64,000 nucleotides of DNA from Brevundimonas sp. (GTDB taxonomy: Bacteria > Pseudomonadota > Alphaproteobacteria > Caulobacterales > Caulobacteraceae): NCBI RefSeq assembly GCF_027484365.1, contig NZ_JAIXTC010000018.1:80286-144285 (forward strand), given 5' to 3'. Position numbers and translations under genes: made by a program. The notes below the pieces were generated by a model. That model was not told the DNA's origin. It was given only the letters and a program-made list of their open reading frames with translations, and did not search any database. Of this stretch, positions 7,967 to 41,537 are shown piece after piece (positions within the stretch are counted from its first letter, which is position 1; the number at the start of each line of letters is the position of its first letter).

Positions 7967-8803
7967 ATGGAAATGCCGGGTATTGTTCGGGCCGCGTTGG
8001 CGGTTATCCTGGTCGTCATGGCCGGTCTGGTGCCGTCGTCGTCCTGGGCGCAGGTGGGCGGTCGTGTCGCCGTTCTTGGCGCCCCGAGTCTCACGGCGTG
8101 GAATGCCGAGGTGGTGTCGAAAATTCTGGCGGACGGTCGTTTCATCGCCGTCGACAACATCGACGTCGGGACAAGCACACCCAGTCTGGCGACGCTTCAG
8201 ACCTATCGCGCGGTCATCGTCTACAATGATGCTAGCGTTCTGAGCAGGGCGACACTGGGAGACAACCTTCACGCCTACCTCCTTGCCGGTGGTGGAGTCG
8301 TTAACGCCGAGTTCGACACCAGCACAGCTCACCTGGCTGGTGCATGGGCTACGAATACCGACACTGCCATCGCCGGGGGTGGACCCACGGTCGGCGAAGC
8401 TACGCTTGGAACAATTGCCCTGCTGGCCCACCCCACGGTCGCAGGCGTGACCACGTTCAACGGAGGCTTTGACAGTTATCGGTCAAGCGGAGCGATCACC
8501 CCGGGTTCGACCCTCGTTGCCAGCTGGTCCACCGGAGAACCGCTTGTGGCCTTCAAACAGGTAGGGGCGGGAACCGTCGTCTCCCTGAATTTCTTCCCTC
8601 CATCGAGCGACTCTCGGTCCGGCTTTTGGACGGCTTCGACAGATGGAGCAAAGCTGATGGCGAACGCGCTGGTCTTTGCCGGGGATGGCGCAGCGCCGCC
8701 GGCACCTGTCCCGACGCTCTCTGAATGGGCCATGATCCTGTTCGGCCTGATCCTGGCGGGTGGCGCAGCGCTCTACATCCAGCGGCGGCAGTCGATCGCA
8801 TAA
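7967..8803 (+). CDS. Exported protein with C-terminal IPTL-CTERM sorting signal
   Basis: Signal peptide (SWA-Q). C-terminus PVPTLSEWAMILFGLILAGGAALYIQRRQ = VPTL motif, TM helix, basic tail. AT-richer codons than neighbouring genes. Confidence 0.85.
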   Translation: MEMPGIVRAALAVILVVMAGLVPSSSWAQVGGRVAVLGAPSLTAWNAEVVSKILADGRFIAVDNIDVGTSTPSLATLQTYRAVIVYNDASVLSRATLGDNLHAYLLAGGGVVNAEFDTSTAHLAGAWATNTDTAIAGGGPTVGEATLGTIALLAHPTVAGVTTFNGGFDSYRSSGAITPGSTLVASWSTGEPLVAFKQVGAGTVVSLNFFPPSSDSRSGFWTASTDGAKLMANALVFAGDGAAPPAPVPTLSEWAMILFGLILAGGAALYIQRRQSIA

Positions 8804-8854: not shown

Positions 8855-9032
8855 TGCATATCTGGTATCCACCCCCAGCCGACCTTGAAAGCGTCCGCTC
8901 TCAGGCCAGCCAATGTATACGACAGCCCCGATGTGATCCGCACATCCTCCCCGGACCCCTTTGAATTCAACGCCCGGCTCTGACGAGAGCCTTTATCCGC
9001 GCCTACATAGGAAACGGGCGGACACTGTCGGC

Positions 9033-9605
9033 ATGACCGAGATCAAACACCGACCGCCCCGCCTCACCGCCGAAGCCTGGGCCCATGCCCGTGAGGATTT
9101 CATCGCCGGCGTCAGTTGCGCCGTCATCGCCGAACGCTACGGCACGACCGACCGCAGCGTCCGTCGTCGGGCCGCGATCGAGGGCTGGCGGCGGCCAGAC
9201 TTCCTGCCGTCGCGCCTCGCCCCGCCCCCGCCGTGGATGGCCGGGCCGCGCACCAAGGACGAGGAGATGGAGATCGATCCGGCGCTGGAGGAGGTCGACG
9301 AGGCCGAATCCGTCTCCCGCTTCGCCCTCCTGTTCAACCCGAACGCCCGATCCCTGCGGCGGTTCGCCTTCCGCCAGGCGGCAGAGAACGCCGCCGTCGA
9401 CCGGCCGCAATAGGCGGTCTCGTGGATGCGGCTGGTCCAGCTGGTGAACAACGCCGACTGCCGTCTGGAAAGCGATTCCTCGGCCTTCCGCGACATCGAC
9501 CACGTCCGCGCCGCCTATCTGCGCCGCCTCAACGAGGCCGTCGCCGAGGGCCGGGACGAAACCCTCGCCGAAGAGGCCGGGGCTGAGGCCGCGCCGGAGA
9601 CCTGA
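9033..9605 (+). pseudogene. HTH protein gene (N-terminus resembles phage terminase small-subunit HTH) interrupted by an in-frame TAG at 9411-9413
   Basis: ATG 9033 MTEIKH..AWAHAREDFIAGVSCAVIAERYGTTDRSVRRRAAIEGWRR. After the TAG the same frame continues for 63 codons with GC-rich coding-style codons (AVSWMRLVQLVNNADCRLE...) to TGA 9603-9605. Confidence 0.7.
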
Positions 9606-9610
9606 TCCCG

Positions 9611-9670
9611 GATTTCGTCCGTTTCGTCCGTTTCGTCAGGGTGTTTTCGTCCGGACCGACGGACAAAACC
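9611..9670. repeat. Dispersed ~60-bp element, copy A: triple 9-mer (GTTTCGTCC-type) plus GGGTG-T-run plus internal inverted repeat
   Basis: Differs from 40180-40240 by 1 indel and 2 substitutions. Confidence 0.92.
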
Positions 9671-9686: not shown

Positions 9687-11396
9687 TCAGGCCAGCTTCA
9701 GGCTCATCTCCCCGCCGATCCATTCGACCCGCGCCTTGTCCCGCGCGGCCCCGGCGGCCGTGGTGTTGCCCAGAGCCTGTTCGGCCTCGGCGAGGACGAA
9801 ATAGCTGTAGGGGTCCATCGGCCAGTCGATCAGAAGTTCCTCGATCTTCGCCTTCGCCCCGGCCGCATCGCCGTTGGCCAGCATCGCGGCGGCGAGGCTC
9901 CTGCGGGTCGGGAACCAGATGATCGGCGGGTCGCCGCCCTCCTCCTCCATCCCCTGGATCTCGGCGGCCCGGGTGAAGGCGGCGACGGCGGCCGATGCAT
10001 TGCCCTCCAGCATGGCGGCCCGCCCTTCCAGCACCCGCTGGGAGACCTCGACGAACAGTTTCATGTCGTCGGCCTGGTCGCCCGTGAGGGAGTCACCCTC
10101 GCGGATCGCCTTGATGGCCCCGGCCTCGACCCGCACGGCCGCTGCATCTCCGGCCCGAGCCGCCGCCTCGCCCCGGCCGTAGTGCCAGCTCGCGCGGAGC
10201 AGGGGCTTGCTTTCAGGCGGCTCGGCCAGGGCCGCGACCTGGGCGGGTGAGCCGAAACGGCCGAAGATCGCATAGGCGTCATTGGCCATCAGCTGACGCC
10301 ACTGGTTGTCGGCCGGGATGTCGGGATAGGTGGCGAGGAAGCCCTCGGCCAGCTTCAGCCCCTCCTCCGCCCCGCCGGCCATCAGGGCCCCGCCCATGCC
10401 GAAATGGATGTTGTGGGCGTGCAGCGGCATCCCCGTGATCCCACCCGGAGGCGCGGCCAGTTCGTCGTAGCGCTTGTCGAGCGCCACGGCCTCGACATTG
10501 GACCTCATCGCGTCCCGATAGCGGCCCACCCGGTAGAAGGTGTGCGACGGCATATGCACCAGATGGCTGGCCGAGGGCGCCAGCCGAGCCAGTTTCTCAC
10601 CATAGGGAATGGCCTTGTGCGGGTCGTCGGACCACTCGGTCAGGTGGATGTAGAGGTGGATGGTGCCGGGGTCGTCGGGGGCCTTCGCCAGCGACGCCTC
10701 GAGGATCTCCATCGCCCGGCTGATGCCCCGGTCCTTGGGCGCGCCGTCTTCATCCCACCATTCGTCGGCCTGCAGCATCCAGGCATCGGCCGTGATGGCG
10801 GCGATCAGGGGGCTGTCGGGATTGCGTCGGGCGATCCGGTCCATGGCCCGGGCGAAGCGCACGCCCTGGCTGGCCTTGGCGCCGGAATAGCGCTGGATCA
10901 GGGCGTCGATCATCTGACGCTGGACCGGGGTCGCGCCCCGCGCCTCGCGCCGCGCCAGCTGGGCCAGCCTCAACCCGGCCCGCAGGGAGTCGTCATCCGT
11001 GCCGCCGCCGTTGAGGTTGGGACCGGTCGCCCAGGCCTCGCCCCAGGCGCACATCCCGCAGTCGGGATCGATGGCCCGTGCCCGGCGGAAGGCGCGCACC
11101 GATTCCTTGTGCTCGAAGGCCCAGCGCAGCCGCACCCCGTGGTCGAACCAGGCCTGGGCCTCCGGGTTCATCGTATCGACGGTCCAGCTCGCGACCTCGC
11201 CGAAGCCGGGCACCAGGACCATCGAGCCTTCCGGCGCGGCGTCCAGCGCCGACCCGACCCGGCCGCAGCCCCGCGGGTTCTGCAGCAGGGAGGCGCTCGC
11301 CTCCGCATCGGCGGAGGCCGAGGTCGCGTCGGCGACGGCGGCGGGTCCCGCCAGACAGAGGGCCAGGGCGGTGAACGTCAGCAGCTTCAGTCGCAT
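9687..11396 (-). CDS. Exported TPR-like helical protein with His-rich motifs, function unknown
   Basis: Signal peptide. Motifs AQAWFDHGV, DPDCGMCAWGEAW, HLYIH, SHLVHMPSH, HAHNIHF, plus C-terminal TPR-like helices. Confidence 0.8.
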   Translation of the reverse strand: MRLKLLTFTALALCLAGPAAVADATSASADAEASASLLQNPRGCGRVGSALDAAPEGSMVLVPGFGEVASWTVDTMNPEAQAWFDHGVRLRWAFEHKESVRAFRRARAIDPDCGMCAWGEAWATGPNLNGGGTDDDSLRAGLRLAQLARREARGATPVQRQMIDALIQRYSGAKASQGVRFARAMDRIARRNPDSPLIAAITADAWMLQADEWWDEDGAPKDRGISRAMEILEASLAKAPDDPGTIHLYIHLTEWSDDPHKAIPYGEKLARLAPSASHLVHMPSHTFYRVGRYRDAMRSNVEAVALDKRYDELAAPPGGITGMPLHAHNIHFGMGGALMAGGAEEGLKLAEGFLATYPDIPADNQWRQLMANDAYAIFGRFGSPAQVAALAEPPESKPLLRASWHYGRGEAAARAGDAAAVRVEAGAIKAIREGDSLTGDQADDMKLFVEVSQRVLEGRAAMLEGNASAAVAAFTRAAEIQGMEEEGGDPPIIWFPTRRSLAAAMLANGDAAGAKAKIEELLIDWPMDPYSYFVLAEAEQALGNTTAAGAARDKARVEWIGGEMSLKLA

Positions 11397-24180: not shown

Positions 24181-24234
24181 GGCGGGGTCTGCGGACTCCA
24201 AAACCCAGTCCGAAGCGTCCGAAGCGTCCGAAGC
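24181..24234. repeat. Diverged inverted copy C of the triple-9-mer element: (GTCCGAAGC)x3 at 24208-24234
   Basis: Reverse complement (GCTTCGGAC)x3-TGGGTTTTGGAGTCCGCAGAC parallels copies A/B (GTTTCGTCC)x3-AGGGTGTTTTTCGTCCGGACAGAC. Confidence 0.6.
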
Positions 24235-24482
24235 GTTCGCACCGCCCTTGGGAAACACGCCGCCGCCTGGACGCCCCTCGAGTGTAGCGCCATGCGAAAC
24301 CCAGGCGCGTTCGGAACAGGTCGAGACCCGTCTGGCGGGTCGTGGAGACGTTTTCCAGGTCGAATGACTTTATTCGCTCGACGTCAGAAGCGGTCGCAGC
24401 GGTCCACAGGGCCGGTTCGTCTGTCCACGTCGGATCATGATCCCGTATCAGGACAATCCGGCCGATCTGCTATGGTGATCCC

Positions 24483-32453: not shown

Positions 32454-32462
32454 GGGATTGCG

Positions 32463-32613
32463 TCCTTCTCCCCTCGGGGGAGAAGGTGGCTCGCGAAGCG
32501 AGACGGATGAGGGGGCGCCTGAAGCGGACTCCATGTCGAACTGGGGATCTGGTGAACCAGTCCCCTCATCCGAGCGGCTCAGCCGCCCACCTTCTCCCCC
32601 AAGGGGAGAAGGA
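32463..32613. repeat. Palindromic intergenic element (CIR/RIME/REP-like, MITE-like architecture)
   Basis: Two identical 10-bp-stem hairpins CCTTCTCCCC-N3-GGGGAGAAGG (32464-32486, 32590-32612), inner inverted repeat CGGATGAGGGG/CCCCTCATCCG (32504-32514, 32562-32572), two small flanking hairpins. Confidence 0.9.
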
Positions 32614-39971: not shown

Positions 39972-40179
39972 ATCCCGCGCCGTGCTCTCCGCCCTTCGCC
40001 AGGGTGCACGGAGGATAGAGCGGAGTCAGGGGCCGAATCAGGTCGCATAAATTTTTCTGTGCGACGCTGAAATCCCGATCTGGTCAATCACAGCGGGATC
40101 CGCACCGCGAATTGCGCGCCCTGGTTCGCCGCGGCCCTATAATTCCCAATCACGGTTCGCGGAGAGAGCGAACAGCGGC

Positions 40180-40240
40180 GATTTCGTCCGTTTCGTCCGT
40201 TTCGTCAGGGTGTTTTTCGTCCGGACAGACGGACGAAACC
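40180..40240. repeat. Dispersed ~60-bp element, copy B (triple 9-mer plus hairpin TTTCGTCC/GGACGAAA)
   Basis: Near-identical to 9611-9670; the flanks of the two copies are unrelated. Confidence 0.92.
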
Positions 40241-40259: not shown

Positions 40260-41537
40260 CTAGTGCTCGAACACGACCCGCCCGCCGACGATCGTCATCT
40301 CCACCCGCCCCTGAAGTCTGCGGCCGTCGAATGGCGAGTTCTTGGACTTGGACCGAAGCGCCGCAGCATCGACGATCACCGGCGCGCCGGGATCGAACAC
40401 GATCAGGTCCGCCGGGGCTCCGGCCTCCAGCACGCCGGCCTCCAGCCCGAGCAGGGTCGCCGGGCCGTGGGTGAGGGGCCGCAGCACGTCGAGAATGTCC
40501 AGCCCCTCCTCGTGATGCAGGCCCAGGGCGGCGGGCAGCAGGGTCTCCAGACCCACGGCGCCCGGCGCGGCCTCGGCGAAGGGGCGGCGCTTGTCCTCGG
40601 CGGGGGCGGGCGTGTGGGCCGAGGTGATCGCCTCGATCAACCCATCGCGCACCGCCTCGATCAGGGCCCGACGGTCGCTCTCGGGCCGCAGCGGCGGCTC
40701 AAGCCGGAAGAAGGTGCGGTAGTCGCCGATGTCGATCTCGTTGAAGCACAGGTGGTTGATCGAGACCGAGGCCGCGACCTCAAGCCCCCTGCCCCGCGCC
40801 CGCGCCAGCACCTCCAGCGCCGCTTCGGTCGAGATTTGATCCACAAGGAACCGCACGCCCGTCTGTTCGACGAGGGCGAGGTCGCGCTCCAGCTGGATGC
40901 GTTCGGCGATGGCCGGCGCGCCCGACAGTCCCAGACGGGTCGCCAGCTCGCCCGAGGTGGCCACGGCGCCTTCGCTCAGCCACGGATCGGCCGGGCGGCA
41001 GGCGATCAAGGCATTGAAAGCCGTGGCATAGGCCATCACCCGCTGCAGCACACGACTGTCGGCGATGACATGGTCGCCATCGGTGAAATACAGGGCGCCG
41101 GCCTCATGCATCAGGCCGATCTCGGCCATCCGCTTGCCGTCGCGCGCCCTCGTGGCGGCGCCCGCCGCGCGGACGTTGACCAGGTTGAGGGCCGCGCCCC
41201 GCCTCTGGATAAAATCAACCATTGCCGGATCATCCACAGCCGGGTCGGTGTCGGGCTGGATGACCACGGTCGTGACCCCGCCCGCCGCTGCGGACAGGCT
41301 GGCCGACTTCAGCGTCTCCTTGGGCTCCGCGCCCGGCTCGCCGGTGCGGACGCGGATGTCGATCAGGCCAGGCGACAGGCACAGACCGCGCGCGTCGAGG
41401 ATCTCTGTGGCCGAAACCGCGACCGAACCCCGCTCGACCCGGGTGATGACACCGTCCTCGATGACCACCGAGCCGGGGCCGTCGTAGTCGGTCGCCGGGT
41501 CCAGCAGACGGGCGTTGATGATGGCCCTGGAACTCAT
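40260..41537 (-). CDS. pyrC: Dihydroorotase-like protein, probably non-catalytic PyrC' (PyrX type)
   Basis: Amidohydrolase fold ([32 protein letters not shown]). HxH metal motif reads RVR and the catalytic Asp motif reads TSAHTP. Confidence 0.88.

Follow-up and report, generated by a model that had tools for sequence, protein, structure and literature searches.

Cis-acting sites that lie beside the gene for their binding protein are known from phages and plasmids, where they include the cosB R-sites of lambda with gpNu1, the hexamer repeats of P1 pac, and the sopC and parS sites of F and P1, located downstream of sopB and parB, respectively. Non-coding transcription units led by a boxA are known from the rrn leaders and from CRISPR arrays preceded by a boxA. 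The dispersed repeats of bacteria are mostly orphans without a known partner. They include MITEs with promoters or IHF sites, of which the Correia element is an example, and the Caulobacter CIR, both of which are cited in PMC10969869. Here, we describe three repeat families in one Brevundimonas genome, each of which is tied to a paralogous gene that bears an array of the family on its 3' side.

The window refers to the whole 64-kb stretch of DNA that was analysed, which belongs to a Brevundimonas genome of 3.41 Mb (G000; 67.5% GC, 31 contigs, 100% complete). It contains 2 closely similar arrays on the plus strand, copy A at positions 9611 to 9670 and copy B at positions 40180 to 40240. The first-pass annotation had located both correctly and had described their flanks as unrelated and their differences as 1 indel and 2 substitutions, which was confirmed, the indel being a T in the T-run. 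In copy A, the direct units (9613-9637) are followed by CAGGGTG (9637-9643), a T-run (9644-9647), CGTCCGGAC (9648-9656) and the inverted unit CGGACAAAA (9660-9668). The order is the same in copy B: direct units (40182-40206), CAGGGTG (40206-40212), T-run (40213-40217), CGTCCGGAC (40218-40226) and, last, the inverted unit CGGACGAAA (40230-40238). Both arrays are followed by a convergent gene on the minus strand, with 16 nt between copy A and the stop codon of its neighbour (9687-11396, no Pfam match) and 19 nt between copy B and that of its own (40260-41537, amidohydrolase gene), in agreement with the gap of 16 to 19 bp reported earlier. The 16-mer TTTCGTCCGTTTCGTC, which spans two units, occurs 4 times in the window without mismatches, and with up to 3 mismatches it was matched 5 times against 0.54 expected, a number that none of 100 shuffles reached.

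Three copies had been counted in the 64 kb, and the possibility had been raised that no others exist in the genome. This turned out to be an under-count, as BLAST and pattern scans identified about 19 copies of this family, here called family 1, in the genome. The core of the family is (TTTCGTCCG)x2-4, that is 2 to 4 direct units per copy, followed by CAGGGTG, a T-run and CGTCCGGAC, and thereafter by a degenerate inverted unit. When 45 distinct copies from five genomes were aligned, the last two units, CAGGGTG and the T-run (columns 1 to 28) were invariant or at least 90% conserved, save for two centre columns at 70% to 90%, and conservation of CGTCCGGAC was at least 70%. The inverted unit CGGACGAAA was variable and represented the least conserved zone; copies A and B do contain the hairpin that had been proposed, in which the right arm corresponds to the unit in reverse complement, but this arm is the part that is least maintained across the family. 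The element is one family of iteron-type array, consisting of 2 to 5 head-to-tail units of 9 bp, a G/T-rich centre of CAGGGTG and T4-6, and one or two inverted units. We noted that the centre heptamer is either CAGGGTG or its reverse complement CACCCTG, depending on copy and lineage (e.g. L029, L031, L032 and G000:C2:700). It was also noted that many family-1 arrays in G050 (e.g. C1:1258064/1258106) are symmetric with at least 2 units on both arms, whereas those in G000 and the sister species G004 are asymmetric.

The 9-mer unit occurs 80 times in the genome, 38 times as an isolated singleton compared to a mean of 29 for shuffled 9-mers, and a seed-type small RNA with many targets was rejected since the isolated 9-mers are at background frequency. 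A CsrA sponge based on ANGGA motifs on the minus strand was rejected because the genome has no CsrA gene. A literature search on the 9-mer sequences returned chance matches only.

By scanning for any tandem 9-mer, we detected a second family, family 2, with the structure (CGGACGCTT)n-CGGACG-GTGTTTT-GGAGTCCGG and about 22 copies in G000. A third, GANTC-rich family, (GGACTnnnn)x3-ATTT-CCGGAGTCC, is present in about 16 copies in the same genome. In families 1, 2, and 3 alike, direct 9-mers are followed by a T-rich centre and then by an inverted unit. The segment at 24181-24234, which had been taken for a diverged and inverted copy of A and B, is instead a member of family 2; this array, copy C, covers positions 24185-24240 on the minus strand as (CGCTTCGGA)x3, CTGGGTTTT, GGAGTCC, and is located about 100 nt upstream of the likely start of aspS in the same orientation as this gene. 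A large palindromic RIME-like element with CCTTCTCCCC..GGGGAGAAGG arms was observed after a gene end at 32455-32612. It is unrelated to the 9-mer families; the first-pass annotation had set the arrays apart from the CIR/RIME type at 32463.

Copy A follows a gene of 190 codons on the plus strand (9033-9605) for a small helix-turn-helix (HTH) protein, the stop codon of which is located 6 nt before the array. The gene has a promoter-type head at 8962-9032 on the same strand, which reads GAATTCAA .. CCCGGCTC .. GAGCC-TTTATC .. GACACT, and then the ATG; copy A itself is gene-linked and has no promoter head of its own. In G000, the gene contains an in-frame amber codon (TAG, 9411-9413) after residue 126; G004 and relatives that are 95% to 98% identical have an intact gene. 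An IPTL-CTERM gene (7967-8803) precedes the HTH cassette in the window and likewise at about 171400-172000 on contig C7, where the HTH ORF is deleted, and the 2 regions look like a segmental duplication of the IPTL gene plus the cassette. Furthermore, a contig of 1,017 bp in G004 (contig 44) contains the 3' end of the HTH gene in a divergent copy together with an array, at a coverage of about 3x, the remainder of the assembly being at about 270x, and probably represents a minor strain or a contaminant.

Full-length homologues of the HTH gene were present at 12 loci from the genus and 4 metagenomic or isolate loci. An array with a common layout was located at or just after the stop codon in 16 of the 16 loci and in three paralogues in G000, with 2 to 3 direct units of 8 to 10 nt, a T- or AT-rich centre and one or more inverted units. 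In the 16 loci, the arrays began 0 to 30 nt from the stop codon, in one locus with a palindromic repeat in between. The unit sequence was specific to species and paralogue and wholly different between lineages, as illustrated by the direct and inverted units GTCATGGC / TGACA, TTGGCACTG / CAGTGCCAA, GTGTCC / GGACAC and TTTGGCGG / CCGCCA, and by the units GGCGCCTTT and GTCCGTTAT, while at least 2 direct units persisted in nearly all lineages. The link was maintained over three syntenic contexts, represented by nrdB, parC and others.

The four paralogues in G000 each have an array of their own, which belongs to family 1 for the HTH gene in the window, to family 2 for C5:84855, and to family 3 for C22:544, and consists of the TGGACTCTCTG pair for C2:237. 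Another genome, G017, contains its own dispersed family with the same unit as that beside its HTH gene. The promoter region of the HTH gene recurs in the genome on elements without the ORF, which have a boxA and arrays in its place, and at C7:171197, ahead of nrdB, a family-1 array is joined to the upstream region and about 20 codons of the gene. A small GIY-YIG-type gene was observed directly upstream of the family-2 HTH paralogue (G000:C5:85146-85346); it is followed by a palindromic repeat, GTCATCC..GGATGAC, which is also present in a composite insertion specific to G004. The association between array and gene that had been hypothesised for an iteron-like element was thus borne out, in that the units adjoin the gene for the candidate binding protein and diverge with it in all 16 loci and in the paralogues. 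Arrays of this type are a conserved appendage on the 3' side of the genes for a family of small HTH proteins specific to Brevundimonas, and their presence across the genus with different units provides a testable hypothesis about protein and site.

Members of the HTH family were found in Brevundimonas only and are annotated as 'hypothetical'. The protein had no sequence match in Pfam, NCBIfam or PDB, and its match to the terminase small subunit family phrog_1206 was weak and confined to the HTH (E 0.003). An AlphaFold model (pLDDT 81) predicts an N-terminal three-helix HTH and long C-terminal helices, and a Foldseek search with the model gave nothing at E <= 0.001. The DNA-binding domain resembles that of GcrA over a fold of 47 residues (target-normalised TM 0.79, with a non-significant E-value). 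Membership of the GcrA family (PF07750) was rejected, as the true GcrA is encoded elsewhere in the genome and the hhalign probability was 0.7%. The protein was not identified as a terminase small subunit either, given the weak match to the HTH only and neighbours that are nrdB, parC or housekeeping genes. In the putative recognition helix, R41, R45, and R46 are invariant, R44 is at least 90% conserved, and only positions 38 to 43 vary.

We tentatively favour the explanation that the arrays are cognate sites of terminase-small-subunit-like HTH proteins and were spread as cassettes that lost the ORF, although we give it somewhat less than an even chance. Sequence-specific recognition by the linked protein, which is a modified version of the iteron hypothesis, is favoured because the direct units are persistent, the conservation is asymmetric, no significant covariation was detected, and the families are specific to paralogues. 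The persistence of direct units in nearly all lineages speaks for a protein, since a simple hairpin needs none. The HTH protein would oligomerise on the units of its own family, and the cassette of promoter, gene, and array would have been duplicated and thereafter have lost the ORF. The leftovers would be mini-cassettes of promoter or boxA plus array, as well as solo arrays, lodged at convergent gene ends. The putative binding could serve as a roadblock to transcription or as insulation at gene ends, or it could resemble the recognition of sites in packaging or partition. A small gene cassette might in this manner seed regulatory or structural sites around the chromosome.

However, several observations count against recognition by the protein. 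The predicted recognition helix is largely invariant while the units vary, and the family-1 gene is truncated by the amber codon in G000, where the arrays are intact. A period of 9 bp is unusual for HTH sites, and there is no fold or profile match to a known family of site-binding proteins. All genomes with family 1 contain an HTH orthologue that is at least 72% identical, and family 1 was seen only in such genomes, but this co-distribution is confounded by phylogeny. Finally, the promoter-like and boxA-like signals that lie upstream of most of the dispersed copies, in the same orientation, would rather fit a role as RNA.

The heads that carry these signals belong to different classes. The class-I head is about 140 bp long and common to seven copies in G000, including copy B, and to their counterparts in G004, G050, and DC300-4. 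It combines an AT-rich palindrome with a conserved TGCGCC block, a TAnAnT box and a GGTTCGC..GCGAAC hairpin; in copy B it covers positions 40042-40179 on the plus strand, where the palindrome is at about 40042-40065, the box reads TATAAT (40138-40143) and the hairpin occupies 40154-40173. A sigma-70 promoter at copy B was not called by a simple scanner, and the -35 region is non-canonical. A tandem glycine riboswitch with two aptamers (61.6 and 39.9 bits; L004:1150-1361, on contig C12 of G000) was observed beside a class-I copy, on the strand opposite to the head. The class-II head, identified in five copies in G000 and nine in G004, contains an AT-rich box and then CTTGCG-N14-CCCCAnnT. The motif GGTCTTTGA(A/C)A, in the form GGTCTTTGACA, is located 95 to 121 nt upstream of the units in these heads (89 to 121 nt in G004), and a second, degenerate copy of this boxA-like motif, which had been considered as an IHF site, is located closer to the units.

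The motif GGTCTTTGA(A/C)A was identified at 20 sites in the genome compared to 1 for a reversed control, and these sites include both 16S leaders, the region upstream of rpsJ and many intergenic elements. In four other Brevundimonas genomes, it likewise follows the rrn promoter at a distance of about 55 nt, and a 16S gene immediately downstream was confirmed in the three loci scanned with Rfam. Because the 16S leaders contain the same motif at this distance from the rrn promoter, we consider that it is, as judged from its sequence, the boxA of the genus and recurs on many non-coding elements between genes. Promoters of rrn in the genus have the form CTTGAC(A/C/G)-N17-TA(A/C/G)AT(C/A) with an AT-rich upstream box (G000:C25:34797, C30:117), and the 16S leader contains two boxA-like motifs. 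BoxA is an RNA signal sufficient for the recruitment of Nus factors (PMC10250234), and there is a precedent for a boxA upstream of rpsJ (PMC5725501). In G000, the boxA of the rRNA leader, GGTCTTTGAAA, is located about 70 nt upstream of the start of rpsJ (S10/NusE) outside the window (C22:5184), which suggests a possible Nus-factor autoregulation like that described in gammaproteobacteria. Among the heads, the boxA motif of the genome's own 16S leader was found downstream of a promoter-like site in the class-II and type-X heads only, and copies A and B have none. The motifs suggest promoter and boxA functions for the heads.

A possible but on the whole doubtful alternative is that the array acts at the RNA level, as the 3' stem-loop of short non-coding units that would comprise a promoter, a 5' hairpin or boxA, the 9-mers, a U-rich apex and the inverted unit. 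The same structure would serve as a 3'-end hairpin for the HTH gene and for convergent neighbours, and may terminate or stabilise transcripts in a genome that is poor in canonical terminators. Such a 3' module is favoured by the co-oriented heads, the boxA, the pattern of wobble pairs and the position at gene ends. In the 5' hairpin of class I, 8 of 8 transitions remain pairable on the plus strand only (G.U-compatible), and 11 of the 19 family-1 tails abut the stop codon of a convergent gene. It is consistent with this that canonical terminators were not enriched in this DNA and that a long hairpin is predicted for the array (z = -3.2). However, the proportion of paired positions in the tail hairpin was 68.9%, compared to 67.6% in shuffled controls, of which 56 in 500 attained the observed proportion, and no significant covariation of pairs was detected in the 45-copy alignment, where the inner hairpin lacked double changes and the 3' arm was least conserved. 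In 13 of 14 gene-linked arrays, the antisense strand equalled or surpassed the sense strand in folding, and strand asymmetry in folding was rejected as evidence for a sense RNA. An intrinsic, Rho-independent terminator was not recognised either, since the T-run is placed within the hairpin or on its 5' side, no U-tract follows the hairpin, and the scanner called none at copies A or B; a terminator built on the T-run was rejected for want of an adequate stem upstream. Rfam gave no match at the gathering threshold in the window, and none at E <= 1 on six element loci. The extra direct units are superfluous for a hairpin, and the missing boxA in copies A and B also weighs against a function as RNA.

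Recognition by a protein and a function in RNA are not mutually exclusive. We regard it as rather unlikely, but worth stating, that the 2 are united in a chromosomal protein-plus-site system of a new kind, in which paralogous HTH proteins would each recognise their own approximately 20 dispersed arrays, with the gene-linked array as the master copy. The copies without ORF would be driven by promoter and boxA, so that the arrays would be transcribed too, and they might mark insulation or termination at gene ends or be pac-like entry sites for a protein resembling a terminase, the whole being a gene-site cassette that copies itself.

It is unlikely that the arrays are inert mosaic repeats of the BIME, RIME, or CIR kind, with modules shuffled by recombination and slippage and with the HTH gene marking a repeat-prone spot, although the distribution of the elements offers arguments for it. 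The elements are strictly intergenic, modular and restricted to lineages, and only 5 of the 151 Caulobacteraceae genomes had arrays of CGGACG-N3. Family 1 was detected in a small clade (G000, G004, G050, and G209) and not in the other genomes of the genus that were searched, including G203, G079, and G147. The promoter-like heads, boxA-like box and GANTC module are combined with the 9-mer tails in several ways, the number of units varies, and the genes next to the copies showed no functional theme. The comparison of filled and empty sites indicated that two copies specific to G004 are parts of composite insertions of 190 to 380 bp without target duplications. Against an inert mosaic stand the link to the gene in all 16 homologue loci and three syntenic contexts, and the family that each paralogue has of its own. 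Furthermore, the units and the centre are nearly invariant among paralogues and orthologues of the array, in contrast to the inverted arm and the class-II heads of the same elements, which are divergent.

The sites themselves have been stable. Orthologous sites in the sister species G004 were identified for 14 of the 19 family-1 copies in G000; an orthologue of copy A follows the intact HTH gene in G004 and G050, and copy B has orthologues in the same 2 genomes. The synteny around copy B was not kept in other species, so no clean empty sites were found there. The tails at orthologous sites in G000 and G004 were usually 88% to 100% identical, like the flanking coding DNA, and between these species the class-II heads had diverged more than the tails, whereas the class-I heads were kept about as well as the tails. 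The dispersal to about 20 intergenic sites per genome is mostly old. Mobility, as proposed in the first-pass annotation, is therefore weakly supported, given the orthologous sites in the sister species and the lack of terminal inverted repeats and target duplications. The head and tail ends of the element are unrelated, with no terminal inverted repeats, and together with the two comparisons of filled and empty sites this did not agree with a MITE. No match to a RAYT gene (Y1 transposase, PF01797) was obtained in the 100%-complete genome, in which the controls matched, and a REP/BIME system with RAYT was rejected for a genome without the Y1 transposase.

It is highly improbable that the arrays are coding remnants, that is the C-terminal xSS/xSD repeats of decaying HTH genes, as the annotation had alternatively proposed: the open frame runs into the array in the paralogues C5:84855 and C22:544 and copy A is in frame with the HTH ORF, but in the latter case only past its TGA stop, and the array is not a coding tail of the HTH gene because the intact orthologues end with a TGA before it, an alignment of 28 proteins has variable acidic C-termini and no xSS/xSD-type tail, distances and frames vary between copies, and tblastn found no further coding remnants beside arrays. 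What stands of that proposal is that the array is a conserved 3' appendage at the DNA level, which the ORF enters in two paralogues.

Returning to the favoured explanation, recognition by the linked HTH protein, the closest likeness is to lambda cosB, P1 pac and sopC/parS, with which the Brevundimonas loci share short direct and inverted units directly beside the gene for a small HTH protein, divergence of the units between relatives and, here as a weak match, the HTH of a terminase small subunit. They differ in that they have no prophage, large terminase, ParA or plasmid context, and in that the units are contiguous 9-mers with about 20 extra copies in the chromosome, to which binding is putative. 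The class-II and type-X heads resemble the boxA-led units of rrn leaders and CRISPR arrays, since the boxA of the genus is placed 3' of a promoter-like site and 5' of untranslated repeats; here the units are 9 nt long and without spacers, copies A and B have no boxA, and transcription is putative. As in MITEs of the Correia type, the elements may be viewed as short non-coding derivatives in which the ends or the regulatory portions of a larger unit are retained, and they have outward promoter-like motifs, but they are without terminal inverted repeats, target duplication and transposase, and 14 of 19 sites are stable between species.

The elements are similar to BIME/REP of E. coli, RIME of Rhizobium and CIR of Caulobacter in being intergenic, modular, lineage-specific and often located between convergent genes. 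Family 3 is rich in GANTC, as is CIR with its CcrM GANTC sites in inverted repeats, whereas family 1 contains no GANTC site and in this respect does not agree with CIR. The Brevundimonas elements are further distinguished from all of these by the lack of a RAYT gene and of a GTAG-type REP palindrome, and by their constitution as tandem 9-mers linked to a family of protein-coding genes.
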